Below are positions 17,806-48,509 of a DNA stretch of 64,000 bases, piece by piece. A model generated the notes under the pieces. The model made no database searches. It had not been told where the DNA came from and saw nothing but the letters and a program-made list of their open reading frames with translations. The stretch lies in IMG/VR virus record IMGVR_UViG_3300043410_001242, one strand, 5' to 3'. The translations under genes were made by a program, and so were the position numbers. This DNA is from a virus. Each line of letters starts with the position of its first letter. Position 1 is the stretch's first letter.

Positions 17806-17884
17806 TGTTTCGCCCTGGTTGACACACTATAGCGCAAAATAGACACAATGGGGGCTTGACTTTTCTCTCTGAGTGTGAGACAAT
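17806..17884 (+). promoter_or_regulatory. cassette promoter copy 1 (degenerate)
   Basis: TGTTTC box, GCTTGACT-17-GACAAT. Confidence 0.6.
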
Positions 17885-18503
17885 AACTCATAATTTAAAT
17901 CAACAGAGAGTATTTAAAAATGAATAATAATCAAATGTATAACTTAACTCACTCAGAATTAGTATCTGAATTGTATCATGTAATGCAAGATGCAGTATTA
18001 AATAAGTATTCAGAAAATGAATACGAAACACGTTTAAGACTATTGTGGGATTATCTCGAAGAATCTGATACTGATACTCTTGAAACTCTCTATACTGTAT
18101 ATTATTAATTGAGAGTATTATATTATGAAATTAGAAAATTATACTGCATTAGTTACTCATGATTATCAAGTATGGGTATATGATGAAAATATGTCGATGG
18201 TCGGTTATCTGAATGAATACTTCAATTCCAAAAAGTCTGCATTATCATATGCAAAACAGTTTGGAAAAGTAGAGTTCGAATAAGTATTAAGAGAGTATTA
18301 TATTATGAAAAGATTATTGAAAGAGTATTTGGTGACTGTATACAGCAAAGATAATGTTCGTCTTGGTGCATATACACTATATGGTAAAACATATCAGGAA
18401 GTATCTGATAAGGTTGAAACTAGATTAAATGGTGATGAAGGTAGTGTTTTCCTTGATTATAAGGGACAATCATTATTAGAAGATTGGTCGGATGAATATT
18501 GAT

Positions 18504-18581
18504 TGCTTCCTAACAGTAAATAGACTGTTTCGTAAATGTCACGATAAAACGCTTGACATTTCCAAAAAAGTCTGATAGAAT
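18504..18581 (+). promoter_or_regulatory. cassette promoter copy 2
   Basis: TGCTTC/TGTTTC 22 bp apart, gap 21, TTGACA-17-TAGAAT. Confidence 0.75.
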
Positions 18582-18618
18582 CTTACTTTAAATTGAAAAT
18601 TGATTAGGAAATTATATT

Positions 18619-18831
18619 ATGAAAACTGTAAATGAAACCCGCGAAAGAATGCACCTTGAATTAGCTCTGGCTGTTGCTGAGTTTGAAATGACTCACAAAG
18701 TAACCTATTGCACACCACAAAAGAATAAAGTATCTCGCTCTGTACGTGCTAAAGAGAAACTGGTATTTAAATCTAAACAACCAGTTAATCGTCCTTGCGT
18801 GATGTTCGATAATGTTCCACTGGTAGTATAA
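18619..18831 (+). CDS. hypothetical protein
   Basis: First ORF after promoter, AGGA RBS. Confidence 0.6.
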   Translation: MKTVNETRERMHLELALAVAEFEMTHKVTYCTPQKNKVSRSVRAKEKLVFKSKQPVNRPCVMFDNVPLVV

Positions 18832-18848
18832 TAGAGAGGTAGATTATT

Positions 18849-19070
18849 ATGGCTAAGTCAGATATTCGCGCTGAATTGAATACGGCAGTGGATGAATACC
18901 TCGCAAAAGGAGGTAAGATATTGGTATGCGAAACCAAGCAGGTAAAAGTATCCAGAAAGGTGAAGGTAAAACCCCACCTATTCATTAAACCATCTGAACC
19001 TCGTGGAGTGGTTTCTATGTTTTATCGTATTGATGAGAGACATAATGTAGGTGCTTGGAATAATTGGTAA
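18849..19070 (+). CDS. hypothetical protein
   Basis: GAGG RBS; EYLAKGGKI motif. Confidence 0.6.
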   Translation: MAKSDIRAELNTAVDEYLAKGGKILVCETKQVKVSRKVKVKPHLFIKPSEPRGVVSMFYRIDERHNVGAWNNW

Positions 19071-19097
19071 CTGTTTCGTTTTTGGTCTACACCGTTA

Positions 19098-19126
19098 ATT
19101 ATACACTAGGAGATACTATATGTCAA
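19098..19126 (-). promoter_or_regulatory. leftward sigma70-type promoter overlapping an RBS
   Basis: Reverse complement TTGACA-17-TATAAT. Confidence 0.6.
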
Positions 19127-19293
19127 GCGTTTTAAATCAAATGGATTGGTTCGAAGAACTCGAATATGCACCTGAGAATACCATTGTAGAGGTATTAGAA
19201 GAGGATGAAGATAATGGTAATGATATTCGCACATATCGCAATTTTGATATTGATTTTGATGAAAGTCAATTTAGCGTTTGGGCAGATTTGTGA
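19120..19293 (+). CDS. acidic 57-aa hypothetical protein (not in ORF track)
   Basis: AGGAGA RBS; MSSVLNQMDWFEELE... Confidence 0.55.
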   Translation: MSSVLNQMDWFEELEYAPENTIVEVLEEDEDNGNDIRTYRNFDIDFDESQFSVWADL

Positions 19294-19302
19294 TAATAAC
19301 TA

Positions 19303-19331
19303 TTGACTTTTCTGAGTATATGTGATATAAT
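19303..19331 (+). promoter_or_regulatory. sigma70-type promoter with no downstream ORF
   Basis: TTGACT-17-TATAAT with TG extension. Confidence 0.7.
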
Positions 19332-19384
19332 GGAGAAGTAATATAAAAAATTTCTCTTGCCATACTCTCACTTAGTCGGACATA

Positions 19385-19567
19385 CCACTACATATAGTAT
19401 CAATCAATCGCTGACAACACTATATCCGCGACATGGTTCCGACTAACGACAGTGACCTCTACATATTGTGTCGCAATATCATTATAAGCACAAGATATAG
19501 TATCACATATCCTTATCAATTTACTATATCTTGTGTCTTTTTTATTCTAATATACTACATATAGTGT
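19385..19567. promoter_or_regulatory. array of six NrdR-box-like 16-mers
   Basis: CCACTACATATAGTAT 19385, ACACTATATCCGCGAC 19417, CCTCTACATATTGTGT 19456, GCACAAGATATAGTAT 19488, TTACTATATCTTGTGT 19521, ATACTACATATAGTGT 19552. Confidence 0.75.
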
Positions 19568-20198
19568 CCACGGATATATACTGTTTACACTTATTACCAT
19601 GGTATCTGGTATATTGTGGTTTTGGTATAACCTTATTACAATATGGACATTCTATTCTTGGTTGATTCTTAGCCTTCTGACTAATCTTCTCTCTGGCTAT
19701 ATCATCATGGGTTTTACCATACATTGCATTATTAATACCCTTAGACTTCACGGATAATTTGTTTCTGGATTCTTCTGTCCATATTCTATTCTTATTTGAT
19801 TGTATAATGGCATTTATAGACTTTTGGTTATTAGTCTTACCATATCTTGGACTATTCTCACCTGATAGCATTATACTATATTGTTTTTTTCTTTCTTCGG
19901 TGAATACATAACCTGACGCACCTTCGGCACCATCGGTTCTATTTCTTAATATACCCGTATTATTGTCTTTTCTGCCGAACCAACGGATATAATATCTCTC
20001 AAGGATAAATGACTGTAATTCGGTTAGATTATCTTGTATGATTATTATACGGGATTTATCTTTGGGTGGTAGTATTTCACCTTTCTTATATTTGTTATAG
20101 GCTCTATCGTCTTTGCCTTTACCAATATAATATGGTGTATAATCCTCTCTCAAATAGGCATAAACATAGAATGGTGTTGATTGAGCATATATACTCAT
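19542..20198 (-). CDS. free-standing GIY-YIG homing endonuclease with NUMOD3-like repeats
   Basis: [31 protein letters not shown]-terminal CPYC. Confidence 0.8.
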
Positions 20199-20308
20199 AG
20201 CTGATACTCCTCTGTAGTATTAGAACCCTTGGATATTACCAGTATCGCGAAGGGTATTTTTCGTGCGTTAGCACTTGTGTTGACACTATTATTTATACAT
20301 TATATTAT
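20199..20308 (-). promoter_or_regulatory. endonuclease leader: late promoter, conserved hairpin, RBS hairpin; divergent sigma70 promoter
   Basis: TATAAATA (rc of 20290-20297); stem 20225-20255; + strand TTGACA-17-TATTAT 20280-20308. Confidence 0.7.
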
Positions 20309-20500
20309 GAAATCTATATCTGTCTTATCCTTTCTATTAAACCTTTCTATGGTACTATCCATTATAGCATTCTCATATAGAGGATGGATTGGTATTATCT
20401 CTATTATATCTGGTATTCGGTTATGATTAATATTATTCTATTGGTATCTGTATTGGTTATATTCTTTTATTGTTTATTCTTTTTCTATGAGGATTAGGTT

Positions 20501-21172
20501 ATGGATATATCATTAACAGTTATTAGAAAGATAGCCAAAGAGAATGGTCTATCTGTTAATAATAATATACTGGCATTTGCACAAGGTATATCCAATCATG
20601 TATCGGGTAAGATTGAAACTGATATTAAGAAAAAGGTGGCGCGGGATATTGTTGAGATGCTCGGTACTAATGTTACTACCTCTGGTGGTACTGTTAAGGT
20701 TAAGTTTCGGAATGATTTGAGTTTTGATGATGTACGGGCATTATTTGATTATGATGGTGTGAATGGTGGTTTAGTATGGAAGAAGGACGGTAAACCTGCC
20801 GGTTCTGTTGAGCATCATGGTTATATTCGTATTGGTGTAAGAGGGAAAACATATAGGGCACACCATTTGGTATGGTTATGGCATCACGGTGTATTTCCTG
20901 ATACTATTGTGGACCATATTAATCAGATCAAGAATGATAATAGGATTGAGAATCTTCGGTTATCTGACCCGACTCTGAATAACCTTAATCGGACGACCGG
21001 TTCCAATAACACCTCTGGATATAAGGGTGTATCATATCTCAAGAAACGGAACAAGTATGAGGCATCCATTACAGTCAAAGGGAAAATGCACCGGTTAGGT
21101 CAATTCAATACCTTTGAGGAGGCCAAGTATGCACGAATGGCATATGAGGAAGAATTGTTGAACGGTGGTTAG
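20501..21172 (+). CDS. HNH endonuclease with AP2 domain
   Basis: YRAHHLVW, VDHIN..KNDNRIENLR, NNTSGYKGV, LGQFNTFEEA. Confidence 0.85.
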   Translation: MDISLTVIRKIAKENGLSVNNNILAFAQGISNHVSGKIETDIKKKVARDIVEMLGTNVTTSGGTVKVKFRNDLSFDDVRALFDYDGVNGGLVWKKDGKPAGSVEHHGYIRIGVRGKTYRAHHLVWLWHHGVFPDTIVDHINQIKNDNRIENLRLSDPTLNNLNRTTGSNNTSGYKGVSYLKKRNKYEASITVKGKMHRLGQFNTFEEAKYARMAYEEELLNGG

Positions 21173-21223
21173 CAGACTATTTCACGGATGCTGGCTTGAC
21201 TTTTTGGTTGGTTCTGATACAAT
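21156..21223 (+). promoter_or_regulatory. cassette promoter copy 3
   Basis: Boxes 22 bp apart, gap 12, TTGACT-16-TACAAT. Confidence 0.8.
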
Positions 21224-21229
21224 CTTTCC

Positions 21230-21424
21230 ATGATGAAAGTTAAGACAAAGACAGCGAAAGAAATGGTACTGGTATCCGAATGGTTAACTCGGTTTGGTAT
21301 CAATTACACTATTAAAGGGTTCACTATTCAATTCTCTGATATTGAATATCATCATTGGTTGATTATTAAATCAGCCGTGAGATTGAATACTGATTCTGTT
21401 ATTGACCATTTGGAGATTGAATAA
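21230..21424 (+). CDS. hypothetical protein (probably leaderless)
   Basis: ATG 7 nt after the -10. Confidence 0.55.
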   Translation: MMKVKTKTAKEMVLVSEWLTRFGINYTIKGFTIQFSDIEYHHWLIIKSAVRLNTDSVIDHLEIE

Positions 21425-22782
21425 AATGAAAGTTTATATTGTAGTATATCGTTATTGGGATGATTCTGAAGTGATTGGCGTATTTACTTCGGCAGATATT
21501 GCAGAGAAGTATATCGAGCAGTCTATTCTTACCTGTTTTGGTAAGAAGGCAGATATTAGTAAGTATCGTGATTGTTATTCGGTTTCTATTGAAGATGTTA
21601 TTGCGGAGTAGTGGTGAATATTATGAAAGATTATAAAGAAATGTCTGAATCTGAATTGGTATCTGAATATAAGGATATTTGTGAAGAATTGGAAGAATGT
21701 GAGTTTGGTTCTTATTCCTACGATGTTTTGAATATGGAATTACAGTATATTCACAGCGTATTATCTGAAAGAGGTTTATAATGTGTGAATGTAATTATGT
21801 TTATTGTGTAATGGAATCTTCATACCCTGCACCTATGGGATTGAGGGTATTCTCTACCTATGCAAAGGCAGATGCATTTAGAAAGGTATTGATGGAAAAG
21901 TATCCTAATTATTCTAATTTTTATGTTGAAAGTATTGAGGTTGATGAATAATGAAAATCAAATATAGAGTTCGTTGTAAGGGTTTAAGGTGGTATGCGAC
22001 ATTTAATACCTTATCAGAAGCAGAAAATCATGCTAAAACCGCATGGGAATTTAAGGATAGTCCCAATAACTATATTGAAGTGATTATAACTGCAAAAGTT
22101 TAATTGGATTTGGAGTTCATATTATGAAAGGTTATATTGTATATCATTATGCAGAGAATTCTCAAGAATGGATGAATGAGTTATTCAAAGAGAATAAGTT
22201 TCCGGTATTTGATTTTGTATCTGACGATAGAGTATTAGCCATGGAGAAACATACCGAATTAGGTGGTATGGATAAGGGTTATTATATTGCACAAGTATCT
22301 GAAATGGTAATGGGAGAATGAATAATGTGGTTTTATATAACGTATTGGTCGAATCTTGATAAATGTTATGGTGAAGATACTATATGGGCAGATTCTTCTG
22401 AATCAGCAAAGAGTATATTCTTTGAATCTCTCGCAAATCATGATTGTGAAATAGTATCCGTGGAGATTGAATAATGGAAGATGAATATAAAAAGTTTATT
22501 AAGGTTGAAGAAGTGGTTGAGCATACACTTGAAATTGATATTGATGAATATGATGATCCCTGTCCTGATTGTGGTAAGCAATTAAAAATGTCCAATTCTG
22601 GTGGTGTATATTGTTCTTGTGGGTATTGGTTCTGTTATTAGAGGGGTGAATTATGACTAATGAAGTAATGATTGCCTCAGTAATGGGGTTTGTGTTGATT
22701 ATAATGGCGTATTACATTATTACAATTTAATTATGAAAGTATATAATGATTTATATTATGTAAAAGAATTGGAGATTGAATA

Positions 22783-22944
22783 ATGAATAAAGTATTAGAT
22801 TTATATTGGAGTGATATGTATAATGAAATCAAGAATGGTAATATATCACCTGATGAATTTCATCAATGGTTATGGGATATATCAGATCAATCCTATCGGA
22901 ATGGTTATAATGATAGTGACCGCGTGAATACTGGTGGTGTATAA
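22783..22944 (+). CDS. hypothetical protein, near-identical paralog of 23439..23642
   Basis: Shared VLDLYWSDMYNEI...DSDRVNTG. Confidence 0.6.
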   Translation: MNKVLDLYWSDMYNEIKNGNISPDEFHQWLWDISDQSYRNGYNDSDRVNTGGV

Positions 22945-23110
22945 TGAAAGTTTATATTATTATTGAAACTGGTACTCATGGTCGTGATTGTATCTATGGA
23001 GTATTTGCGTCTAGAGAATCAGCATCTAATTGGATTGATAATCAACCTTGGTTATCTGAAGTAGATAAAGAGTTTCTTATTATTATTGAAGAAGAATTGA
23101 GGGTTGAATA

Positions 23111-23452
23111 ATGAAAAAGACATATATCATATATTGGAATTTTGATGGACGGATAGTTCAAAATCGTGAGAAATGTACCTATGAAGAATTAAAAAAACAT
23201 ATCCATAAAACGATAACTGAATATAAAGCAAATATAGAATATGTGGAAGAAATTATAGAATCGCGGGCCCGAATTGATATAGATGGAAAAGAACCGAAAA
23301 CCTTTATTGGTCCGAAGTCAGACAAAAAGTCGTTATTGGAAATGATTGAGGCAATACCTAGACGCATTGAGCCATTAGGCGGTCAGAGATTCAGCTACGT
23401 CAAACTTGCAGAAGTAATTGACACCATAAAGGACTATTATGGAGTATTGTAA
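23111..23452 (+). CDS. hypothetical protein
   Basis: 113-aa ORF, GAGG RBS. Confidence 0.55.
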   Translation: MKKTYIIYWNFDGRIVQNREKCTYEELKKHIHKTITEYKANIEYVEEIIESRARIDIDGKEPKTFIGPKSDKKSLLEMIEAIPRRIEPLGGQRFSYVKLAEVIDTIKDYYGVL

Positions 23453-23642
23453 GATAATGGTAGAAATGCAGAATCGCGTATTAGATTTATATTGGAGTGA
23501 TATGTATAATGAAATCATCAAGGGTAATGTATCACCGGATGAATTTCATCAATGGTTATGGGATATATCGGAACAATCATATCGGGATGGTTATAATGAT
23601 AGTGACCGTGTGAATACTGGTATTGTTGGAGAACCGCAATAA
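23439..23642 (+). CDS. hypothetical protein, paralog of 22783..22944
   Basis: DNA-level duplication. Confidence 0.6.
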   Translation: MEYCKIMVEMQNRVLDLYWSDMYNEIIKGNVSPDEFHQWLWDISEQSYRDGYNDSDRVNTGIVGEPQ

Positions 23643-24248
23643 TGGAAAATGATTATAATAAGTTTATTAGGGAAATATCAGACGAATACCTATTCAAATC
23701 TGATATTGATGATGTTGAGGAGTTTATTGAAACCAAGGATTTTGAATCGTTTGGTGTAGAATATGAAACCGTGGTATTTGATGTTACCATGTTTATATTA
23801 GAGCAAGATTATGAGTGGGATGAATAATGAATAATAGAGATAGTGTAGTCCAATTGAGAGAGATTATAGAATGGATTAAGGAGATTGATACAGGGAATGA
23901 AAACTATAATTATAAACTGTTGAAAGTCCAGCAGTTTATAGAAGATATTGTTATTGATATGGTATATGATAAACTGGATAATGGGAGTGAATAATGAATA
24001 ATTGTGGTGAATCCATATTCGTTTTTATTCTATTCACTCTATTTGTATTGGGTACATGGAAAGCATTTGAGATTATTATTTGGTTATTTCAACACGTTAG
24101 GATAGTATAATGTTATATCTTATTAGTGTTGATAATGATGGTCTGATATATTCTGGTGGTGATACACCAGAGGATGCCATTAAGGCTGTTGAGTTTTTTC
24201 TTGGTGAAGGCAGGCAATATACGGTCCTGCACCAAATCGACCTTTAAG

Positions 24249-24411
24249 AATCAACCACTTACAACACACAATCCTCCCCTCCTGCATCCTTCCCACCTGC
24301 CCTGGTGTTCACCGTCACGGACACAACCAGGGCGCCTCTCGATTGTTCACTCCTAAGAAGCGCATTGTTTCACGGCCGCTGGCTTGACTTCCTCACTGGT
24401 TCTGATACAAT
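24249..24411 (+). promoter_or_regulatory. cassette promoter copy 4 with IHF site, C-rich tract and hairpin
   Basis: AATCAACCACTTA; GCCCTGGT...ACCAGGGC; boxes 24344/24366; TTGACT-16-TACAAT. Confidence 0.8.
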
Positions 24412-24586
24412 CTTTCCATAGTCAGAGAGAAATTGAATTAGGAGTTAAATTATGAAAGTCAATAAACAATATATGGTCGGTTACAATAACGGGTTTTGGA
24501 TGGAATTCAAAGTCTCATTATCCCTTGTGGTTATGTTTCTGACCTTTCTTACCCTTTTCGCGAATTAATTAATAGGAGAATATATC

Positions 24587-25003
24587 ATGGCTTATATGAA
24601 TCAAAACCTCAAAGCAGAATTGGCACCTGGTATCAAGGCTGTATTAAAGAAATATGGCATGAAAGGTAGTATTGCTGTCCGTCACCATATGTCCCTGGTT
24701 GTCAATATCAAGAGTGGTAAACTGGATATCATGCAAAACTGGTATGATAAAGTAACCGAAAATGGTACTGTCAACCAGTATGGTGACAATATCAGAAAGC
24801 CTGAATACCTTGATGTTAATCAGTATTGGATCGAAGATGGTTATACTGGTATTGTCAAGGACTTCATTAATGAACTATATGCCGCCATGAAAGGTGATAA
24901 ATGGTTCGATAAATCAGATATTCAATCAGACTATTTCCATACCGCATACTATATGGATATTCATGTTGGGAATTGGAATAAACCGTATATCTTTGAGGGT
25001 TAA
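24587..25003 (+). CDS. conserved phage hypothetical protein
   Basis: AGGAGA RBS; DKSDIQSDYFH motif. Confidence 0.7.
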   Translation: MAYMNQNLKAELAPGIKAVLKKYGMKGSIAVRHHMSLVVNIKSGKLDIMQNWYDKVTENGTVNQYGDNIRKPEYLDVNQYWIEDGYTGIVKDFINELYAAMKGDKWFDKSDIQSDYFHTAYYMDIHVGNWNKPYIFEG

Positions 25004-25286
25004 TAATGGATACTAGAGTTAAATTTAGTGAAGTGTCTATTGGAGAGATATTCTTTGATGAAGTATCTGGAGAGTATTGGAGAAAAGACAATCTCACGAC
25101 TGCCAGTATTATGTCTGGCCATTATGATGGTACTGATATTTTTCAAATTGATGAATATGTTATTGTAGAGGTTGAATAGTATGTGTGAAGATTATGATGT
25201 ATATCAGTATGATGAGTATTATTGGGATAGTATTCCATATGATGATATTTACGATACTGCCGAAGAAATTGATTTAAAGGATTGGG

Positions 25287-25544
25287 ATGAATAAAATGAA
25301 AAAATATAGTAAGAAAGAACAATATAATATTCTCTGCCAGTCGGCAATACTGGTTAATGATGAAGGATCATTTCGTATTGATTATGTACCCGAGTATGAT
25401 GTTTTATTAAATGGTGATGATTCTATTGTATTGAGTAATGAATCAGATGGTGAAGATTATTATTATGATCTTGATGAAATTGATTTAAATGATCCATCTA
25501 CCAATACCTATAGACTGGTATTATCTAACCCTATTGTGGAGTAA
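25287..25544 (+). CDS. acidic hypothetical protein
   Basis: ORF in module. Confidence 0.5.
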   Translation: MNKMKKYSKKEQYNILCQSAILVNDEGSFRIDYVPEYDVLLNGDDSIVLSNESDGEDYYYDLDEIDLNDPSTNTYRLVLSNPIVE

Positions 25545-25811
25545 CCATGGATAATGTATTTGTTGTGGTATATGAGTATTTCGATGATTTTGAAGTCTTG
25601 GAAGTATTCAAGACTAGAGCATTAGCAGAATGTTATATTGGGAATTTCCCGCATGATGGTGTATATTATACTGTTGATAATTTCGATATACTAGAAAAGA
25701 AACTTTGGGAGTAATATGTTAGAATTTGATAACCTTCAAATGATGGTGCTCTGGCACTATGATTGGGTGCTACACCTCCACCTGTCATTCTGACAATCCA
25801 GGGCATTTATA

Positions 25812-25975
25812 AATCAATCACTTATAACACCCAATCCTTTCCTCCTGCATCCTGCCCTGGTTGCACGGCATACACTCACACCGATCCACGGACCACTGTT
25901 AACCAATCTGCTCATCATTGTTTCATGGATTGACAGCAATCCGCGCTTGACATTCGATGGATTTTGTGAGACAAT
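25812..25975 (+). promoter_or_regulatory. cassette promoter copy 5 with IHF site and C-rich tract
   Basis: AATCAATCACTTA; boxes 25897/25919; gap 22; TTGACA-17-GACAAT. Confidence 0.75.
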
Positions 25976-25981
25976 ACCACC

Positions 25982-26152
25982 ATGAAATCAAGAAACACAA
26001 AGCGAAACGGGTACTTCCAGGTTCTAGTCTATCAAGGCACCGACTGGGTTGATACCAAGAAATATAAAACCATGAACCGTGCTTATGACTTCAAAGCAGT
26101 AAGAGAATCCCTGGGATATACTGTTAAGGTCAAATGGGTTAATTTGGACTGA
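25982..26152 (+). CDS. 56-aa hypothetical protein, probably leaderless (not in ORF track)
   Basis: ATG 7 nt after the -10; MKSRNTKRNGYFQV... Confidence 0.5.
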   Translation: MKSRNTKRNGYFQVLVYQGTDWVDTKKYKTMNRAYDFKAVRESLGYTVKVKWVNLD

Positions 26153-26169
26153 TTATTAGGAGATATATT

Positions 26170-26385
26170 ATGTGGGATTTTAAAGATATGTATATTACTG
26201 CTGATTATTATGGCCATACCGTTACTGGTAAAGTCAGAGATTCTCGCGTAAAACTGGGTGGTACTATTGTCCATTATATTGACTTCGATCAACCACAGCC
26301 GGTGGGTTTTCGTGGAACTATGCGGGATGGTGTAATGGTCGAACACGCTTGGGTTAAAAGGGTAAGAGATAACATTGGAGAATAA
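26170..26385 (+). CDS. hypothetical protein, paralog of 43507..43716
   Basis: Shared SRVKLGGT.VHY...MRDG.MVEHAWV. Confidence 0.7.
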   Translation: MWDFKDMYITADYYGHTVTGKVRDSRVKLGGTIVHYIDFDQPQPVGFRGTMRDGVMVEHAWVKRVRDNIGE

Positions 26386-26707
26386 TTATGTATATTCAAT
26401 TTGATGATGCTATGGGTTTGTGGGCAGTATTAACTGATGATGATCGGTTACTGTCTTATTTCTATAATAAAATGGATGCTGAATCATTTCTTAATGGTAT
26501 GAAGTCATTCATTAATACGGTTGGTGGTTAATATGAAGAAATATGTATTTGAATATCTCGATGATGAAGGACTATTCGAGGAGTTTCATATAAAGGCTGA
26601 AGACCGAGAAACGGCATGGTTTAAAATCAAAGAATATGCTGGTATTGGTGCCGTTATTCTGGGAGTATATGAGGAGATTTTCAGCGGCGAGTGGTTGGTT
26701 GAGTGAT

Positions 26708-26774
26708 TGTTGCCTCCTGGTTAGCAGACTGTTTCATGGATAGAGCTTGCAATCCTCCACGGTTCTGATACAAT
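26708..26774 (+). promoter_or_regulatory. cassette promoter copy 6
   Basis: Boxes 26708/26730, gap 11, TTGCAA-16-TACAAT. Confidence 0.8.
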
Positions 26775-26987
26775 CCTCCCATAGTTTGAAACATTGATTG
26801 GAGATTATATTATGAAAAACAGAACTACCGTTAAAACTCGCACCCTTCCCTTCACCGTGGTATACACCGTCGATGGTGTAACCACCAAAAAGAGATTCAC
26901 GGAGGCTGGTGCCGCATGGAGTTTTATGTCCAAGGTCGGCGGACACCTTAACATGGCATTCCGCACCGCTTAATTAGGAGATATATT

Positions 26988-27731: not shown

Positions 27732-27809
27732 TTATTTTCTAGAAAACCATTATATTTTCACATTTTACGACTAAATAATTAAGTATAGTTTGTAAACTAG
27801 GAGAATATA

Positions 27810-29304: not shown

Positions 29305-29335
29305 CGGTGCCAACCAGGGCATCCACGCCATTGTA

Positions 29336-29498
29336 AATCAACCACTTACCGACTCAATTCCTTCCTCCGTGCGTCCTTCTACCGTGCCCTGGTGTTGACC
29401 TTCACGGACTGAAGGACCACTGCTTCACAAATCGCTCAACATTGTTTCTCGGATGGGTACGATCCAGGGCTTGACTTCCGCCCTGGTTCTGATACAAT
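29336..29498 (+). promoter_or_regulatory. cassette promoter copy 7 with IHF site and C-rich tract
   Basis: AATCAACCACTTA; boxes 29421/29443; gap 22; TTGACT-16-TACAAT. Confidence 0.8.
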
Positions 29499-29537
29499 CC
29501 TCCCATAGTTTGAGACAACCACTTAGGAGAATATATT

Positions 29538-29951: not shown

Positions 29952-29952
29952 T

Positions 29953-30291: not shown

Positions 30292-30390
30292 TTTTTATTG
30301 ATTTTCTTGGTCTTATTATGATGGTATTGGTTATTTGGTTTTATTATCCGGTACTGAAGGCAGAATTCAAGAGTCTACGGAGAAAGTGAT

Positions 30391-30458
30391 TGTTTCGCCG
30401 GACGAAGCAGACTGTTTCACGGCCAGGGGCTTGCAATCCTGGCCGGTTCTGATACAAT
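30391..30458 (+). promoter_or_regulatory. cassette promoter copy 8
   Basis: Boxes 30391/30413, gap 12, TTGCAA-16-TACAAT. Confidence 0.8.
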
Positions 30459-30866
30459 CCTTCCATAGTTTGAAATTTGGAGATTGTATTATGAAAACTG
30501 AAAACAAAAAATTTTATGTAACCCTTGAATATGTTAGCGGTAGCAATAAATCCTTTGAGTATAGTACCACCCTTGGTCGTGGTTTCGCCTCTTTTGATGC
30601 TGCTCAGCAGTTTGGTGATACCGTAATGGATAACACCAAAGATTGTAATACCCGCGTTGCTAACTTCACTGTCTGTTGGAGATAATATATTATGAATACT
30701 TTAGGACTGTTTAGATTTACATTTGAAGATGGTACTACCGAAACCTGTTTCGGTGATGGATTGGCCGATGCCTTTTGGATGTTCGCTGATAAGTTTGGAA
30801 CGGACGATTTGAATGGTTTACTTTCTCTTGAAAGAACCCACACCTTTTAATTATTGAGGTCATATT

Positions 30867-31175: not shown

Positions 31176-32216
31176 ATGACTAATATGAGTAAATTCCCAC
31201 ATATCGAGCAGTTCCGTAATGTAATCCGAAAGGTTACTGATAAGACTCGGTATTCTGGTAAAGATGATAATGGTAACGCTATTTTTAATAATTCACCATT
31301 ACCCACCCTTAGATTCACTGGCACTACCAAGATTCATGGTACCAATGCCGCTGTCGGTGTTACCAATGATGGTATCCAATGGACTCAGAGTAGAGAAAAC
31401 ATTATCACCCCAGAAAAGGATAATGCTGGTTTTGCTACCTTTGCTTATAAGAATAAACAATTCTTTTCAAATCTATTGGAAAAGATGGACTATTATAGAA
31501 GTGAATATAGTGGTTTTGTTGTATATGGCGAATGGTGTGGTAAAGGTATTCAAAAAGGTGTAGCTGTATCAGAATTGGATAAAATGTTTGTGGTATTTAA
31601 TATCAAACTTATTTCCAATTCTGAAGAACAACCTAATCGTTGGTTGGAAAATGATTATGTCCAAGAATTAATCGGACATAATGAAGATGAAAGAATCTTC
31701 AATATCTTCACGTTTGGTAAGTGGGAAGTGGATATTGATTTCAATTATCCTGAACTGTCTTCCAATAAGCTTATTGAATTGACCGAATCTGTAGAATCTG
31801 AATGTCCTGTCGGTAAGTATTTCGGAGTAACCGGTGTCGGTGAAGGTATTGTATGGTCTTGCAATACTTGGCCTTATGTCGGCGGTGACTTTATGTTTAA
31901 GGTTAAAGGTGAGAAACATTCTGCTTCTAAGGTCAAAACCTTGGCCGCTGTTGACGTTGAAAGGGTTAATAGTATCAAGGAATGTGTTGATAAGATTATC
32001 ACCGAAAACAGACTTAACCAGGGTCTGGATCATCTTAGAATGAACCATTTGGAGATTATTCCACAAAACCTTGGTGTTTTTATTAAGTGGGTTACCTCCG
32101 ATGCAATCCGAGAAGAACTGGATACCATTATTGAATCTGGCTTCATTCCAAAGGATATTGGTGCTGTGGCTTCCAAGGTTGCCCGTGACTGGTTCTTCCG
32201 AACCACTCAGGTGTGA
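31176..32216 (+). CDS. RNA ligase 2 (Rnl2)-like protein
   Basis: Motif I KIHGTN, QSRE, YGEWCG.GIQKGV, GEGIVW, FKVKG. Confidence 0.8.
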   Translation: MTNMSKFPHIEQFRNVIRKVTDKTRYSGKDDNGNAIFNNSPLPTLRFTGTTKIHGTNAAVGVTNDGIQWTQSRENIITPEKDNAGFATFAYKNKQFFSNLLEKMDYYRSEYSGFVVYGEWCGKGIQKGVAVSELDKMFVVFNIKLISNSEEQPNRWLENDYVQELIGHNEDERIFNIFTFGKWEVDIDFNYPELSSNKLIELTESVESECPVGKYFGVTGVGEGIVWSCNTWPYVGGDFMFKVKGEKHSASKVKTLAAVDVERVNSIKECVDKIITENRLNQGLDHLRMNHLEIIPQNLGVFIKWVTSDAIREELDTIIESGFIPKDIGAVASKVARDWFFRTTQV

Positions 32217-32217
32217 T

Positions 32218-32295
32218 TGTTTCTCCCTGGTTGATAGACTGTTTCACCGATCAGCCACAACCAGGGCTTGACTTCCGGGCCAGTTCTGATACAAT
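32218..32295 (+). promoter_or_regulatory. cassette promoter copy 9
   Basis: Boxes 32218/32240, gap 22, TTGACT-16-TACAAT. Confidence 0.8.
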
Positions 32296-32330
32296 CCTTC
32301 CATAGTTTAAGAAATCAATAGGAAATTTAT

Positions 32331-35251: not shown

Positions 35252-35408
35252 AATCAAACACTTACCGACTAGAATCCTCCCCTCCTTCGTCCTACCTGCC
35301 CGCCCTGGTGTTGACCGTGCGGCACGCACCAGGGCACCACTGTTTCTCCTCCGTTAGCAGACTGTTTCACGTCCGCTGGCTTGCAATCCTCCAGGACTCC
35401 TGTATACT
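35252..35408 (+). promoter_or_regulatory. cassette promoter copy 10 with IHF site, C-rich tract and hairpin
   Basis: AATCAAACACTTA; GCCCTGGTG...CACCAGGGC; boxes 35341/35363; TTGCAA-16-TATACT. Confidence 0.8.
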
Positions 35409-35460
35409 GGTCTCCAACAAGTGAGAGACAAGTTATTAAATTATTATTAGGAGTTATATT

Positions 35461-36289: not shown

Positions 36290-36619
36290 ATGATTATGAG
36301 TGATGAAACAAAGTTTGTTAATGAAATGGATTATGTTCTTGACCATTTCAATTTCGAGAAATGCCATAAGGTAATGGAGTTTCTGGATTGGAAATGGGCC
36401 CAGAGTAATGGTTGCGTACCTAGTATTGGTGAAATGCGGCAGTTTGCCCGTGAATTGATTCGGGATGCTTATCGTAATATGACACAGCAAGAAACTATCA
36501 CCAAGGAATGCACCATCGAATGTGGTGGGTTTGTTGTAAGGGTTGAACAGGAGTATCCAGGGCAGAAGGTCTATATTCGCCTTCGGTTTAGTGCGGCTTC
36601 CTGGGACAATTACGATTGA
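36290..36619 (+). CDS. hypothetical protein
   Basis: 109-aa ORF. Confidence 0.55.
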   Translation: MIMSDETKFVNEMDYVLDHFNFEKCHKVMEFLDWKWAQSNGCVPSIGEMRQFARELIRDAYRNMTQQETITKECTIECGGFVVRVEQEYPGQKVYIRLRFSAASWDNYD

Positions 36620-36620
36620 T

Positions 36621-36687
36621 TGTTTCTCGATGGTTAACAGAGTGTTTCACAACCAGGGCTTGATCTCCTCCCTGGTTGTGTTATACT
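36621..36687 (+). promoter_or_regulatory. cassette promoter copy 11
   Basis: Boxes 36621/36643, gap 11, TTGATC-16-TATACT. Confidence 0.75.
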
Positions 36688-36694
36688 CCTCACC

Positions 36695-40333: not shown

Positions 40334-40793
40334 TATTGAGGACTTGATTATGAATGAACTATCTAATGATTGGAAAGAAGATTGTTTACATTTTTGGGGG
40401 AAAGTTCTAACGGGTAAATACTGTCATTGGTGTGCCGACTGGGACTACCTTTCACTGGACGAAACTTGTCATCCGTTTGCTTATTGTAATTGTGAAAGGG
40501 ATGAATGGGATATGAATGAAAAGATTAAAGAACTTGCTGAACAGGCAGAAGAGGCCGCAAGGAAAAACAATCCTTACTGGCAAATGTCAGATGAATTTCC
40601 AGAGGACAAGATTTGGAGAGAAAAGTTCGCCGAGTTGATTATCCAAGAATGTTCTAATGTGGTAAATGACTTTGCACTTCAACTAGCATCAGAACCAGAA
40701 CACATATTTAACATTCTTGGGGAAAATCTTTTGGTTAGCATCAAAATAACTGATGCTGCTCATAAAATTAAAGAACATTTCGGAGTTGAATAA
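40317..40793 (+). CDS. hypothetical protein, apparent fusion of two small-ORF families
   Basis: N-part similar to 45415..45600; C-part NEKIKEL family. Confidence 0.55.
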   Translation: MYTIVDIEDLIMNELSNDWKEDCLHFWGKVLTGKYCHWCADWDYLSLDETCHPFAYCNCERDEWDMNEKIKELAEQAEEAARKNNPYWQMSDEFPEDKIWREKFAELIIQECSNVVNDFALQLASEPEHIFNILGENLLVSIKITDAAHKIKEHFGVE

Positions 40794-41137
40794 TGAATCC
40801 TAAAGAACTCATTTTACAAGTGGAAAGGGCTATTCAATTCGGTAGAATGGATGATTGGAAAGTAGTAATTCCGGTCAGACGAATTGGTTCTATTGGTGGT
40901 ACTCCTTGTGTTAATATTGAATTAGTTAGTGCTGGATTTGATTGGGATGCAGGTAAAATCTTTCTTAATACTGAAGAAGAACTGCGTGTTATTGGTGTTG
41001 ATGAAATCAAGGCACTTAAAGATGAATATAAGGAGTTAGGTTGGAAATACTCCCAGATTAGTGGTTTAAAGCGAGAAAATAAGAAACTGAAAGAAAGAAT
41101 TAAGGAATTGGAGAATAAGTATGAATCCAGTAATTAA
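40793..41137 (+). CDS. hypothetical protein, paralog of 38613..38966
   Basis: DNA-level duplication. Confidence 0.7.
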   Translation: MNPKELILQVERAIQFGRMDDWKVVIPVRRIGSIGGTPCVNIELVSAGFDWDAGKIFLNTEEELRVIGVDEIKALKDEYKELGWKYSQISGLKRENKKLKERIKELENKYESSN

Positions 41138-43125: not shown

Positions 43126-43269
43126 AATCAAGACCTTACGGCATTCTTGGTGTCCTCATCCGAGGCACCAGTCAAACCCAAACGCCGGCGCAAAGCCTGA
43201 TTGTTCACTTCCACGAAGCAGATTGTTTCATCTCCGCTGGCTTGCAATCCTGGCCACTTGTGATAGAAT
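43126..43269 (+). promoter_or_regulatory. cassette promoter copy 12 with IHF site
   Basis: AATCAAGACCTTA; boxes 43202/43224; gap 12; TTGCAA-16-TAGAAT. Confidence 0.75.
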
Positions 43270-43506
43270 GTGTCCATAGTTTGAGAGATTGATACATTTT
43301 TTGGAGTTTATATGGAAAAGTTTGTTTTTGTTGTTTCTAAGTTTGACCGTCTGGATATGCGGATGGGTGTGGTCAGCGACCACTTCAATACTAAAGAAGA
43401 AGCTGAGAAATACTGGTGGGAAACTGTCCAGAAGAATCTGGATTTAGTTCAGAAAGGTTATAATTATTATGTCGAATCCCTTCGGGTTGCTTAATTAGGA
43501 GTTATT

Positions 43507-43716
43507 ATGTGGAATCTTGAAGGTTTGTATATTTCTGGTAAATACTACGATAAACCCTTTACTGGTAAAGTGACTTCCTCTCGCGTTAAACTGGGTGGTA
43601 CTGTCGTGCATTATGTTACTTTCCCCGAACCACAACCCATTGGTTTTCGTGGTGAAATGCGTGATGGTATCATGGTAGAACACGCATGGGTTGAAAAAGT
43701 AATGAGTAACATTTAA
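43507..43716 (+). CDS. hypothetical protein, paralog of 26170..26385
   Basis: AGGAG RBS; shared motifs. Confidence 0.7.
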   Translation: MWNLEGLYISGKYYDKPFTGKVTSSRVKLGGTVVHYVTFPEPQPIGFRGEMRDGIMVEHAWVEKVMSNI

Positions 43717-44672: not shown

Positions 44673-45167
44673 ATGTTTGTTCGTAATGTAATTGGTGGTC
44701 TGGTAATGTCTCTGGTATCTGGTGTGGTAATGGCTGACAAGGCACCAGAGGTAAACAAGTATAAGTCGCTCGAGTTATACAATGCACATAAGGGTATTGT
44801 ATTCAATCAGGTAGAAGAATTCAAGTGTCTTGCAGAAAATATCTATTATGAATCAAGAGGTGAACCTTATATTGGCAAGATTGCAGTAGCTCAGATTACA
44901 TTCAATCGTGCAGAAAAGGTTGGTTCTTTCTGTGAAGTGGTACACAAACCGAAGCAGTTCTCTTGGACTCTTAATAAGGATATCAAGAAACCTCACGGTA
45001 AAGAGTGGGAGGCCTCTGTCCATGCTGCCAGTATGTTCGCTCATGGTGTTCGTGTGAGAAACCTGGAAAAAGTGGAACACTACCACACGGGTTATGTGAA
45101 TCCAGTCTGGGATAATAACATGGTCAAGGTAGCAACCATTGGTGGCCATGATTTTTATGGAGAATAG
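44673..45167 (+). CDS. SleB-like cell wall hydrolase
   Basis: Signal peptide; CLAENIYYESRGE, AVAQ..NR, QFSW, IGGHDFY. Confidence 0.85.
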   Translation: MFVRNVIGGLVMSLVSGVVMADKAPEVNKYKSLELYNAHKGIVFNQVEEFKCLAENIYYESRGEPYIGKIAVAQITFNRAEKVGSFCEVVHKPKQFSWTLNKDIKKPHGKEWEASVHAASMFAHGVRVRNLEKVEHYHTGYVNPVWDNNMVKVATIGGHDFYGE

Positions 45168-47558
45168 TAATGAAAGTCAAAGAATTGATTGAAAACCTTT
45201 CTGAATTGGATCAAGAATCTTACCTTTTTGTTCATGGTTATGAAGGTGGATATAATGATGTTGGTTTTTGTAGTGATGAAATCCAAATGGTAAGGGATGT
45301 TAATGATGCATGGTATTATGGTAAACATGAACTTTTGGAAGACAAATGGCAAATTAGACATATTAATCTTGATACCAAAGTAGTTGATAAAGGTTACATT
45401 ATTGGAGCAGATTAGTGGAACCCAGTAAAGAATGGATAGAGGATTGTATGCATTTTCATGGAAAGGTATTAACAGGGAAGTATTCCCATTGGTGTCCTGA
45501 TTGGGATTATTTGCCAATAGACGAAACCTGTGAACCGGAGTTTGGATGTTGTCTTTGTGGATATAGGAGAATTACAGATAATGATTGTAACACGAAATAA
45601 TATTAAAGAATGTCATGTCAATACTCTTGATGCAGTATATCAGTCCGACTATTATATCAGTCTATTACCCGATTGGGAACCAGAAACTACACAAGAGATT
45701 ATAACCTATTGGAATAAATTCTGGATGAATCTGCCTGATAATAAGAGTATTCACCGCGATCCTTTCTATCAGGTTTGTGATATTGCAGAATGTGTATTTG
45801 ATGAACAATTTTATGAGGATGAATAATGGAAATTCTTGATTGTATGTGGTTTTCTGGTAGAACTAGTGTTGGTATTGTAAAAGTTAAGGATGAATATGAA
45901 GGAGTGAAATACTATATTGGTTCTGCAATGGGTATTAAAGAAAAAGATGATATGCAACATATTGCAGATTGGGGTGCGACATTCCCTAAATCTGCCGGTG
46001 ATGTTTTGTTTGGAGTAAATTAATGAATAGTAATACTAAAATGACTTTGGTTATCTTCTTGTCTTTGGTTTTTGTTGTATTTGGACCAATTTTAGTTATT
46101 TGGTCTCTGAATACTCTATTCAAACTGAATATTGAATATAATTTTAATACATGGGCAGCTACTGCATTTCTAAGTAGTGTTATTGCTGGTGCACCTAGGA
46201 AATCTTAATAAGGAGATAATTATGACATATCGTGATCTTTTGGACAATCTTCAGCTCATGTCTGAACTGGAACCATCTATGCTTAATCGTACTGTAATGG
46301 CTTCTTATGAAGATGCTGAATTCTTCTCTGTGGACAATATCATGGTAGAACCTCTTGGTAATGATTTCCATGATAATAAGCAACCACTATTGGTTCTTGG
46401 TAATTAATTCATCATTAACGGAGGACATACCTATGGTAACTAAAAATGAAACTTTTGTCAATACTCTGAGTCAAATTAATTTGCTGGTTTTTTATATTGT
46501 GGGTCTAATGTCATTGTCCAGTTTTGTTCTGGGACATTATGAAAAGTTCGGGTTTCAATTAATCATTGCACTTTTGAATCTGTATACCTATTTTGATTTA
46601 ACGGAGGATAAAGAATGAATGTATGGATGTTGGTCATTCTGTTCAATTCAACGACAGATTCCAAAATGGCAATTTATACAACCGAACAGGAGTGCAGAAA
46701 AGTTTTGCCTATTGTGAAAGAAATGAACAAAGATGATACTGATATTAGTTTAATTGATTGTATGAAAGGAAGAATTGTAAAGGAGAAAAAGTAATGTTAT
46801 TTGACTTTCTGTTTAAGAACAGAAGTGGAGACACTTCTATTAATGAACGTATTGATAATCAGGAGTTTACTGATAGTGAAATTGAGAATCTAGTAAAGGA
46901 TGAATTGAAAGTCCTCACCCTTGGTGAATTGGTTGACTATTATTTTGAAACCAGGTGTAGAGAACTTGATAAGATTAAACCTAAGACACGAAAGAAAAAG
47001 GTTGCCAAGTGAGTGGTACTGTGTTAGGATTACGTTTCTTGACCAGTAGTGATACTAGGGGACGACCTATTACAGTCCTACAATACAAGAATGATCTTGG
47101 TGAGTGGGTGGACGTTCCCTATGCATATACTGAAGAGGTTATGAATGACCACCACACCGACTGGTCAAAACATTTTTCAAACAACCAGTAATTATTATGA
47201 TTTATCTTCTTGAAACCACAAACTGGACAGACAATACTCCCAATCACATATATATTTTCGATAATAAAAAATCATCTAAATGCATTGGTTATATCAAAGA
47301 CGGAACTCTTGATATTGAATTTTTCAAAAAACCTATGCCTTTTGATAAGAAGAAAAGAACATTTAAAGAAATAAAGGTGTAGTATGTTTATAGCCGTCAA
47401 ACTTATAATCTATATTATTGCGGCCCATACATTGTATACTCATGGAATTGACCCAACAAAGAAACTTATGGATTTTATAGTTTTGATGAGCTGCGTTTTG
47501 TTTATGGACGTTATTTCTTATTTTTCTGCTAAATATACTTTTGAAAAGGAACAAATGA

Positions 47559-47996
47559 ATGACAGAAAAGACTGAAATAGATGATGATTGTGGTTGTAAT
47601 TCACAATCATCACAAGAACATAACGAAAGAGAATTTGAAAAGATTAAGGATTCAATGGAATCCACTAGAGAGAATCTAAATTCAATGTTCGACAAAATAA
47701 AAGATATGAATTTGGATTTTTCAAGATTCTCCAACCTTGAAAAGGATGTCAGAGAAATGACCCAGTATATGCGATCTGGTGACTTTCTAAAATCTATGGA
47801 AGGAGTATTGGAAAAAGCAAATGTTGACACATCAGTTCTATCAAAGATGAATACTATAAACCCACAGGTTTATAGTCCATTTAAACAAAAAGAAAAACAA
47901 CCCATCGGATACGTTTGGATTGATGAGAGTGGAGAACAGAAGTTTTCTCCTGAAAAACCAGACGATATTGTATCAATGCCAGTATATGGTGAATAA
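47559..47996 (+). CDS. hypothetical protein
   Basis: 145-aa ORF. Confidence 0.55.
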   Translation: MTEKTEIDDDCGCNSQSSQEHNEREFEKIKDSMESTRENLNSMFDKIKDMNLDFSRFSNLEKDVREMTQYMRSGDFLKSMEGVLEKANVDTSVLSKMNTINPQVYSPFKQKEKQPIGYVWIDESGEQKFSPEKPDDIVSMPVYGE

Positions 47997-48295
47997 TGAA
48001 TATTCTAGAATTTATTAGACAAGGCGGAAAATGTAAATCCGCAGCAGGACATTGGTTTCATCTGACAGATATTGTTGAGGGTGAACAATACCCTATTAAA
48101 GGTACACTCATTCACAATAATGAACCATTCAAATATGAATGGGCAGAAGATGGAACTCCAAGCAATTTGCCATATACCCATTGCCTGGATTTGGTGCCTG
48201 TTATTGAAGTTATCAAATACAAAATGGTCGATAAAAAAGAATTGGCCAAATATGATAATATCGAGGACTTTAAAAGTGCTTGCAAAACTGATTGA
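47996..48295 (+). CDS. hypothetical protein
   Basis: TAATG coupling. Confidence 0.55.
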   Translation: MNILEFIRQGGKCKSAAGHWFHLTDIVEGEQYPIKGTLIHNNEPFKYEWAEDGTPSNLPYTHCLDLVPVIEVIKYKMVDKKELAKYDNIEDFKSACKTD

Positions 48296-48441
48296 TGAAG
48301 TTCTGGCCAGGATCGTCCTGGTCGCTCTTGGTGTTCTTGTCATTGTCCTTGCGTTGGTGTCTCCTACCCGTTGCCTGTTCGCTCTCCGATACGCCTTCCT
48401 TCAAGACTCAGCCTTGAGTCGAATCTGTAACGACTGCTGAT

Positions 48442-48509
48442 TGTTTCTTCCTAGTCAGCAGACTGTTTCACGGCCAGCGGCTTGCAATACTGGCCCTCTC
48501 CTGTATAAT
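48442..48509 (+). promoter_or_regulatory. cassette promoter copy 13
   Basis: Boxes 48442/48464, gap 12, TTGCAA-16-TATAAT. Confidence 0.8.

Follow-up and report, generated by a model that had tools for sequence, protein, structure and literature searches.

An array of 13 sigma70-like promoter cassettes with precisely spaced 9-bp direct repeats in a T4-like phage of methane-oxidising bacteria

Anatomy and setting of the array

The window, that is, the whole 64-kb stretch of DNA analysed here, comes from an uncultured T4-like phage of methane-oxidising bacteria that carries pmoC. It contains a region with ORFans and homing endonucleases, flanked by T4-like core genes, which is the hyperplastic region of a T4-like genome. 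Here, 13 modules of 0.6-6.5 kb are each headed by a short repeated cassette. An nhmmer search with a profile of the 13 sites returned exactly 13 cassettes, all on the + strand (E values of 1e-11 to 1e-25), and the best non-cassette match in the window had an E value of 0.17. The search recovered the 13 copies at the coordinates claimed in a preliminary description of this DNA and added none. The cassettes, together with the D5 extensions found upstream of some of them, are as follows.

17803..17919, + strand: cassette 1; box 1 AATTGTTTC, box 2 degenerate (TATAGC), 22-bp linker, TTGACT-17-GACAAT
18501..18618, + strand: cassette 2; box 1 GATTGCTTC overlapping the TGA stop of ORF 18305-18502, box 2 GACTGTTTC, 21-bp linker, TTGACA-17-TAGAAT; start codon 18619
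21153..21229, + strand: cassette 3; 12-bp linker, TTGACT-16-TACAAT; ATG 21230 coincides with the predicted +1; the inter-box region holds the end of the HNH-AP2 endonuclease gene 20501-21172
24249..24340, + strand: D5 of cassette 4, directly upstream of it; ATCAAYCACTTAC, then AATCCTCCCCTCCTGCATCC, then the GC hairpin GCCCTGGTG...CCAGGGC
24341..24451, + strand: cassette 4; 12-bp linker, TTGACT-16-TACAAT; D5 upstream
25812..25893, + strand: D5 of cassette 5, upstream of it
25894..25981, + strand: cassette 5; hairpin-bearing 22-bp linker (GGATTG/CAATCC), TTGACA-17-GACAAT; D5 upstream; ATG 25982 at the predicted +1
26705..26811, + strand: cassette 6; 11-bp linker, TTGCAA-16-TACAAT
29336..29417, + strand: D5 of cassette 7, upstream of it
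29418..29537, + strand: cassette 7; 22-bp linker, TTGACT-16-TACAAT; D5 upstream
30388..30490, + strand: cassette 8, the closest to consensus among the 13; both boxes perfect, 12-bp linker, TTGCAA-16-TACAAT; -35 enclosed by an 8-bp GC stem
32215..32330, + strand: cassette 9; boxes 1 and 2 perfect, 22-bp linker, TTGACT-16-TACAAT; the RNA ligase gene 31176-32216 has its TGA at the cassette start
35252..35337, + strand: D5 of cassette 10, upstream of it; the first codons are the last ones of ORF 35078-35272 (...ENQTLTD*)
35338..35460, + strand: cassette 10; 12-bp linker, TTGCAA-16-TATACT; D5 upstream
36618..36694, + strand: cassette 11; 11-bp linker, TTGATC-16-TATACT; -35 enclosed by a 10-bp stem; ATG 36695 one base past the predicted +1 (36694)
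43199..43311, + strand: cassette 12; 12-bp linker, TTGCAA-16-TAGAAT; crossover zone relative to the related contigs G001 and G002
48439..48567, + strand: cassette 13, which closes the array; boxes 1 and 2 perfect, 12-bp linker, TTGCAA-16-TATAAT

The cassettes are ~95-120 bp long and have four parts. Two 9-bp direct repeats, GAYTGTTTC, stand 22 bp apart, with the TGA stop of the upstream gene inside box 1 (the first repeat begins at the stop codon). They are followed by a linker of 11-12 or 21-22 bp and by a strong sigma70-type promoter of the form GC-TTGAC(T/A) or TTGCAA, a GC-rich spacer that is mostly 16 bp long, and TTnTGn-TAcAAT, downstream of which come CC and then an A at the predicted +1. 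A conserved leader, ATAGTTTGARA, leads to a Shine-Dalgarno sequence and the ATG. In an information profile, the upstream part resolves into two peaks of 9 bp each, GATTGTTTC and GACTGTTTC. Between them lies sequence of fixed length and poor conservation, in which a few shared “alleles” recur. The TGTTTC hexamers noted previously are thus the core of a longer conserved unit, the 9-mer, and the GTT half-site noted midway between them is present in 6/13 copies, confined to one inter-box subfamily. Box 1 is degenerate in several window copies (TGTTGA, TGTTCA, TGTTAA). At up to two mismatches, the double box matches the window 23 times, compared with 11.2 +/- 3.4 times in shuffles; five matches are perfect, and each of these is a cassette.

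The geometry is as it had been described. The distance from box 1 to box 2 is 22 bp in 13/13 window copies, and between box 2 and the -35 lie 11-12 bp in eight copies and 21-22 bp in five (those at 17806, 18504, 25897, 29421, and 32218), with none intermediate. Ten of the 13 promoters have a 16-bp spacer and three a 17-bp spacer (17806, 18504, and 25897). Other strong sigma70-like promoters of the window have 17-bp spacers (12193, 49382, and 53448; 19303 and 20280 on the + strand; 19126 and 17714 on the - strand). Since promoters of this kind are intermingled with the array, the proposal that the cassettes control the whole early region is too broad, although they do head its 13 modules.

Copies in related phages

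The cassette family recurs in three related IMG/VR phage contigs (14, 14, and 5 copies) and at ~29 metagenome loci. True relatives were recovered by gapped patterns; a 14-mer scan of viral contigs gave chance single matches only, and the GenBank phages held no match, near or distant, to the window or the cassette. Among 84 non-identical copies drawn from at least 20 contigs, the gap is 11 bp (22 copies), 12 bp (26), 21 bp (11), or 22 bp (25) and takes no other value; because the copies share ancestry and trade parts with one another, their counts are not independent. The boxes are 22 bp apart in 80/81 copies. When the search was repeated with permitted gaps of 5-39 bp, only gaps of 10-12 and 21-22 bp were returned. 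The long linkers form ~10 clusters that are alike in length but unrelated in sequence, and a tree built without the linker requires at least 19 switches between short and long forms. That so few gap lengths occur despite very different linkers supports the face-of-helix dependence put forward earlier.

A sigma70-like promoter, TTGAC(T/A) or TTGCAA followed by 16/17 bp and TTnTGnTAnAAT, is conserved at the sequence level across the 84 copies. Nearly all have an extended -10, the start region is conserved as well, and the -35 is near consensus in most, with weak -35 hexamers (TTGCAA, TTTACA) limited to copies in which the boxes are proximal. The double box never occurs without a promoter in the window or in any of the three IMG/VR contigs; promoter-only copies do occur.

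We compared module order in the related phages. The genes come in a scrambled order in relatives that share 70-85% nucleotide identity, G001 and G002 among them, and modules have just their first or last genes in common. Block ends fall at cassettes in 25/101 cases, against 8.4% expected, a modest enrichment because cassettes make up ~15% of gene junctions. Several crossovers lie inside cassettes, with examples of block ends at 32218 and 43202. The scrambled order and the breakpoints inside cassettes support the module shuffling that had been suggested. Sequence comparison shows the cassette anatomy, the strict spacing, the coupling of boxes to promoter, and the location of cassettes at exchange points between related phages.

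PeSL cassettes and the reading of the box pair

The closest known system is the promoter-early stem-loop (PeSL) cassettes of T4-type phages, described in RB49/phi1, T4/PST, and KVP40/nt-1 [Arbiol et al. 2010 (PMC2839356); Comeau et al. 2014 (PMC4122927)]. The comparison, already drawn in the preliminary description, is apt, with agreement in promoter, location, and association with indels (PMC2839356, PMC4122927). Both kinds of cassette carry a near-consensus sigma70 promoter and a Shine-Dalgarno sequence, both lie between small ORFans of the hyperplastic region and extend from the upstream stop to the downstream ATG, both have GC-rich segments over the -35 or spacer in some copies, and both are tied to gene gain, loss, and replacement between relatives. 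However, in classical PeSLs the upstream region is AT-rich and a stem-loop is the defining element, whereas the cassettes described here have two 9-bp direct repeats in helical register upstream and a stem-loop in a subset only, and their spacer is mostly 16 bp rather than 17 bp. Moreover, promoter activity, terminator activity, and mini-circles have been shown experimentally for PeSLs (PMC2839356, PMC4122927), whereas the present cassettes are defined by sequence comparison. Cassettes of the PeSL type are regarded as drivers of gene shuffling among T4-like phages. To our knowledge, their upstream halves have so far been described only as AT-rich DNA and a hairpin; what appears to be new here is an upstream half made of a precisely spaced, sequence-specific box pair.

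Folding analysis gave no consensus RNA structure for the cassette (RNAalifold energy of 0.0, mean z of about -0.2 to -0.5), and its conservation is therefore one of sequence and spacing. Together with the fixed spacing and the box-promoter coupling, this argues for a DNA-level protein site in helical register. With a little better than even confidence, we read the 13 sites as copies of a portable PeSL-type early-promoter cassette whose boxes are probably bound by an in-register protein. Such a putative sequence-specific protein would bind both boxes as two protomers on one DNA face, with predicted box centres near -51 and -73 or, one turn further, near -61 and -83. It would have to sit in helical register with RNA polymerase to modulate initiation, either as activation or as shut-off, and its candidate origins are the host, the virion, or early phage expression. 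At class I activator-dependent promoters of E. coli, upstream sites are tolerated only one helical turn apart, and the same holds for UP elements; the cassette boxes, on one helical face upstream of -50 by their gaps (11/12 or 21/22 bp) and predicted start, have comparable centres. The cassette core is strong, however, with a good -35 and an extended -10, unlike the weak core of a class I promoter. Activation, as assigned previously, stays a candidate role: the -35 and extended -10 are already near consensus, and the promoters look strong alone, so an activator is not obviously needed. A DNA-binding regulator did not emerge among 40 ORFs of the window, three partial relatives gave no MotCF match to suggest a MotA-like factor (an uninformative result, as the control was silent as well), and a literature search for a TGTTTC-binding regulator returned nothing useful.

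Four other explanations must be weighed against this reading. The boxes might touch RNA polymerase directly, as UP-like sites for the alpha C-terminal domains or through DNA shape, with no dedicated factor, and the one-turn rule would then reflect the reach of the alpha-CTD along one face. By the predicted start, box 2 of the short class has its TTT at about -50 to -48, which is the position of the distal UP subsite, and early promoters have to fire before phage proteins exist. UP elements, however, are A/T-rich between about -40 and -60, whereas this part of the cassette is not: its linkers are often GC-rich, and G and C are among the invariant positions of the box (GAYTG...C). It would also be unusual for an UP element to have the same 9-mer again two turns further upstream, and we regard direct contact as unlikely. 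We give the same low weight to the possibility that the boxes lack a transcriptional role and are kept as recombining linker DNA, homogenised by gene conversion and spreading with the modules. Cassettes do swap parts and lie at crossover points, their inter-box sequences fall into a few shared alleles, and PeSLs have been proposed as recombination substrates (PMC2839356). Homology-driven exchange nevertheless predicts neither sharp 9-bp peaks, nor fixed-length flanks of poor conservation, nor a gap quantised by helical turns across unrelated linkers.

An RNA 3′-end signal of the upstream transcript (an attenuator, processing, or stability element equivalent to the PeSL stem-loop) would fit a cassette that begins at the upstream stop codon. 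Complementarity around the -35 forms GC stems in a subset and beats that of chimeras (z of -3.5; -8 kcal or below in 14/84 copies), and 7/15 D5 extensions have a hairpin of -15 to -19 kcal. Against this stand the lack of a consensus fold, with z-scores near 0, and the absence of terminator-like sites at the cassettes. Such a signal would also have no need to keep in helical phase with the -35 that follows it, and we consider it quite improbable. No Rfam family was found at the cassettes. Least probable of all, in our view, is a host OmpR/PhoB-family response regulator. Sites of this family (PhoP box, pho box, tor boxes) are TGTTT direct repeats with a period of 10-11 bp, and the cassette repeats are likewise direct and contain TGTTT. 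The hexamer resembles PhoP/PhoB half-sites (TGTTTA-N5-TGTTTA in PhoP), TGTTTA is found in some copies, and one subfamily has a GGTTRR site midway. Yet the period of the conserved repeats is 22 bp, the midway site is missing from the other inter-box subfamilies, and the -35 is intact, unlike that of typical PhoB-dependent promoters. The double box was not enriched over a reversed-pattern control in five Methylococcaceae genomes, candidate hosts that may exclude the true one; this lack of a host regulon-like motif fits direct polymerase contact and, with the 22-bp period, leaves the OmpR/PhoB analogy proposed earlier weak.

A resemblance to iterons, direct repeats to which initiator proteins bind, is formal only. 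GGGACTGTTTCC repeats with a 22-bp period occur in unrelated prophage contigs of about 40 kb and have a similar core word, but iterons form 3-5+ tandem copies at one origin, whereas the cassettes bear pairs at many promoters.

Returning to the in-register protein, a more specific and decidedly speculative version would make the paired 9-mers the operator of a dedicated, putative lineage-specific phage protein, possibly virion-delivered. By contacting RNA polymerase from one face of the helix, this protein would set how active all hyperplastic-region promoters are or shut them off, and it would also mark cassette boundaries for exchange. The result would be a PeSL system equipped with a trans-acting factor of its own, in loose analogy to integron attC sites and their integrase. 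The 84 natural variants, with a distance quantised by one helical turn, amount to a ready-made spacing experiment, and the prediction from the spacing is that a specific protein acts at every accessory-gene promoter of a pmoC-carrying methanotroph phage lineage. If no factor is found, this would be one more PeSL-like array. Its discovery would reveal how dozens of accessory genes are coordinated, or switched off, in such phages and could show whether regulation and cassette exchange are linked.

Read-through RNA and D5 extensions

Two further ideas were discarded. Hiding of the downstream ribosome-binding site by the promoter segment on read-through RNA was rejected, as there was no covariation (z of 0.66) and the effect equalled that of shuffled upstream segments (0.64 vs 0.61). 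D5 as an independent conserved promoter was rejected because its critical -10 positions vary. The IHF consensus WATCAANNNNTTR matches 4/4 D5 copies, yet its window-wide count (14 vs 9.2) is not above chance, and we treat IHF at D5 as a lead only. In several copies, the first bases of D5 encode the C-terminus (NQxLTD*) of unrelated ORFs.

Anatomy of a repeated, predicted early-promoter cassette

The 13 copies of the predicted early-promoter cassette in the window could be aligned over ∼95 nt, and a profile built from them recovered exactly these 13 sites, all on the + strand, with E values of 1e-11 to 1e-25 (next match, E 0.17). The double box was commoner in the window than in shuffled sequences, and all of its perfect copies were cassettes. 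The paired upstream direct repeats, box 1 and box 2, lay 22 bp apart in every cassette; the gap from box 2 to the -35 measured 11/12 bp in eight (short class) and 21/22 bp in five (long class). The spacer between -35 and -10 was 16 bp in 10 cassettes and 17 bp in three, and the remaining strong promoters of the window had AT-rich spacers of 17 bp. The feature is real, non-random, and well described in the preliminary description, which had reported the sites, this geometry, and the 17-bp spacing of ordinary promoters. Box 2 was degenerate in the copy at 17806 (named by its first-box position). A GTT half-site, said to lie often midway between the boxes, was present in 6 of 13 copies and is limited to one inter-box subfamily.

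An information profile resolved the conserved units as two 9-mers, GATTGTTTC (box 1) and GACTGTTTC (box 2), separated by 13 poorly conserved base pairs. In most copies, the upstream gene's TGA stop consisted of a T plus the GA of box 1, a limit at the stop codon like that of PeSLs, the promoter-early stem-loop cassettes of T4-type phages (PMC2839356). The -35 (GC-TTGAC(T/A) or TTGCAA) and a GC-rich spacer were followed by an extended -10, TTnTGnTAnAAT, then CC and the predicted +1 (an A); next came the conserved leader, ATAGTTTGARA, and a Shine-Dalgarno sequence with ATG. The ATG coincided with the predicted +1 in cassettes 3 (21156; ATG at 21230) and 5 (25897; ATG at 25982) and lay one base 3′ of it in cassette 11 (36621; ATG at 36695); the three ORFs had no Shine-Dalgarno sequence, and the layout was kept at homologous genes in G001 and G002, two related phage contigs. 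Judged from this arrangement, mRNAs from these ATGs may be leaderless.

Where the -10 was TACAAT, its region read GATTGTATC on the bottom strand, an inverted 8/9 match to GATTGTTTC. This may be a coincidence, because ACAAT is the complement of ATTGT.

Inverted box-like words GATTGTATC at the -10
21216-21224, - strand, box-like word
24404-24412, - strand, box-like word
26767-26775, - strand, box-like word
29491-29499, - strand, box-like word
30451-30459, - strand, box-like word
32288-32296, - strand, box-like word

The spacing rule and the function of the boxes

Scans with gapped patterns recovered this cassette from three related IMG/VR contigs, G001-G003 (14, 14, and 5 copies), whose common genes were 70-85% identical to the window in nucleotide sequence, and from ∼29 metagenome loci; it was not found in GenBank phages. 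Of 95 non-identical copies, 84 had both box 2 and the promoter in good form. The gap in these was 11 (n = 22), 12 (n = 26), 21 (n = 11), or 22 bp (n = 25), and no copy fell between the two classes, which supports the face-of-helix dependence proposed earlier. A search seeded on double boxes and allowing any gap of 5-39 bp gave the same result. The boxes were 22 bp apart in 80 of 81 copies, and the spacer was 16 bp in 57 and 17 bp in 27. Because the long-class linkers, ranging from GC hairpins to AT-rich runs, formed ∼10 sequence clusters and a linker-free tree required at least 19 short/long changes (27.5 with shuffled labels), we infer that the gap-length rule is a constraint and not a single inherited indel. 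The weaker -35 hexamers (TTGCAA, TTTACA) occurred only with the proximal box position, a link that may be functional or may stem from common ancestry.

The sequence and spacing of the boxes were conserved and their fold was not: RNAalifold gave no consensus RNA structure for the cassette, and single-copy z-scores averaged about -0.2 to -0.5. In the window and G001-G003, double boxes never occurred without a promoter, and promoter-only copies exist. With register shifts of one helical turn only, these findings point to a DNA-level, promoter-tied function. If the boxes served the upstream gene as an RNA signal, or were purely a recombination substrate, a register with the -35 that shifts only by one helical turn would not be predicted. 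The most likely mechanism is that a sequence-specific protein would bind the boxes on one DNA face and communicate with RNA polymerase. If transcription starts 7 nt 3′ of the -10, as predicted, the centers of boxes 2 and 1 would lie near -51 and -73 in the short class and near -61 and -83 in the long class. Such a protein retains the factor of the preliminary description, though not its sign as an activator; since the promoters look strong unaided, a factor for shut-off or timing would be equally plausible. Seen in 84 natural variants, the spacing rule turns the idea of a trans-acting factor into a specific prediction that can be tested.

OmpR/PhoB-type sites, to which the boxes had been likened, have a period of 10-11 bp. 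The cassette, in contrast, conserves 22 bp and has its midway site in one subfamily only, and a scan of five candidate host genomes found no enrichment of the double box over a reversed-pattern control; the analogy is weak. No regulator was found among 40 window ORFs; many were ORFans, and the others included homing endonucleases, a methyltransferase, a Lar-like protein, and a cell-wall hydrolase. The word and 22-bp period of the boxes also occurred in unrelated IMG/VR prophage contigs of ∼40 kb (L304, L305, L308-L311, L315, and others) as three to five tandem iterons with core GGGACTGTTTCC, presumably origin iterons.

Similarity to PeSLs, gene exchange, and D5 elements

In a PeSL, a sigma70 promoter close to consensus is joined to AT-rich upstream DNA and to a stem-loop, which may be situated upstream of the hexamers, between them, or over them (PMC2839356, PMC4122927). 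The present cassette has its promoter, limits, genomic setting, and link to gene exchange in common with PeSLs, as had been suspected. Whereas the stem-loop is part of a PeSL, only a subset of the present cassettes has a stem: complementarity of the -35 flank with the spacer exceeded that of chimeras (z -3.5) but reached -8 kcal in only 14 of 84 copies. The phased 9-mer pair has no counterpart in the descriptions in those two papers. On sequence grounds, the cassette appears to be a variant of the PeSL kind, the new part being its strict helical-turn spacing rule.

The module shuffling suggested earlier is supported by the related phages. Compared with the window, G001 and G002 had a strongly different gene order in the hyperplastic region, the accessory-gene stretch holding the cassettes, and inter-cassette modules often had only the first or last gene in common. 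Of 101 ends of collinear blocks, 25 fell at cassettes, vs. 8.4% expected from their length (p ∼7e-7), a modest excess against the estimated ∼15% share of cassettes among gene junctions. Two cassettes gave clear exchange cases. At 32218, the gene 3′ of the cassette was not linked to the RNA ligase gene in G001; at 43202, the two flanks adjoined separate cassettes in G001 and G002, and the crossover fell between -35 and leader. Paralogous segments inside the hyperplastic region are evidence of duplication besides exchange.

Homing-endonuclease-like genes and paralogous segments
20501-21172, + strand, HNH + AP2 homing-endonuclease-like gene; stop codon between the two boxes of cassette 3
19542-20198 and 33746-34360, - strand, NUMOD3 homing-endonuclease-like paralogues; ∼73% nucleotide identity over ∼210 nt
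38610-38909 vs. 40790-41089, 26166-26376 vs. 43503-43713, and 22785-22940 vs. 23471-23626, paralogous small-gene segments, 74-90% identical

An extra element, D5, accompanied 15 of the 46 profile matches in the window and G001-G003 (11 of the elements in G001-G003), always directly upstream of a cassette. It comprised ATCAAYCACTTAC, which fits the IHF consensus WATCAANNNNTTR, a pyrimidine block, AATCCTTCCTCCTTGCATCC, and often a GC hairpin, GCCCTGGTG...CACCAGGGC; 7 of 15 extensions carried a hairpin of -15 to -19 kcal. Its first bases encode the C terminus NQxLT(D/E)* of unrelated ORFs.

D5 elements in the window
24249-24340, D5 element
25812-25893, D5 element
29336-29417, D5 element
35252-35337, D5 element
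43126, D5 remnant

The 7-mers CCAGGGC and GCCCTGG occurred 15 times in the window, all within 17.7-36.7 kb (17728-36659), and most paired as inverted repeats in or beside cassettes and D5 elements.

Source phage and host signals

The window (G+C 35.8%) had no near match among GenBank phages. Its large genes were those of T4-like replication and nucleotide metabolism (primase, RNR subunits, exonuclease, RNA ligase, and peptidase), the peptidase having its top tblastn matches, ∼33% identical, in T4-like cyanophages. An intact pmoC gene encoded a product that shared 81-91% identity with PmoC from Methylococcaceae isolates and MAGs; the top matches were on short MAG contigs, possibly phage themselves. 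From the T4-like genes and the Methylococcaceae-like pmoC, the source is an uncultured T4-like “pmoC phage” of freshwater methanotrophs, a group described in PMC7674155, where promoters are not mentioned.

Host-related genes
51732-52508, + strand, pmoC (Pfam AmoC, E 6e-122)
62881-63243, + strand, permuted (two-piece) tmRNA gene (Rfam tmRNA_permuted 109.6 bits, alpha_tmRNA 66.3 bits)

ARAGORN gave the tmRNA tag as ANDDVYSYALAA. The host signals conflict: the tmRNA is of alphaproteobacterial type, whereas pmoC looks gammaproteobacterial (Methylococcaceae).
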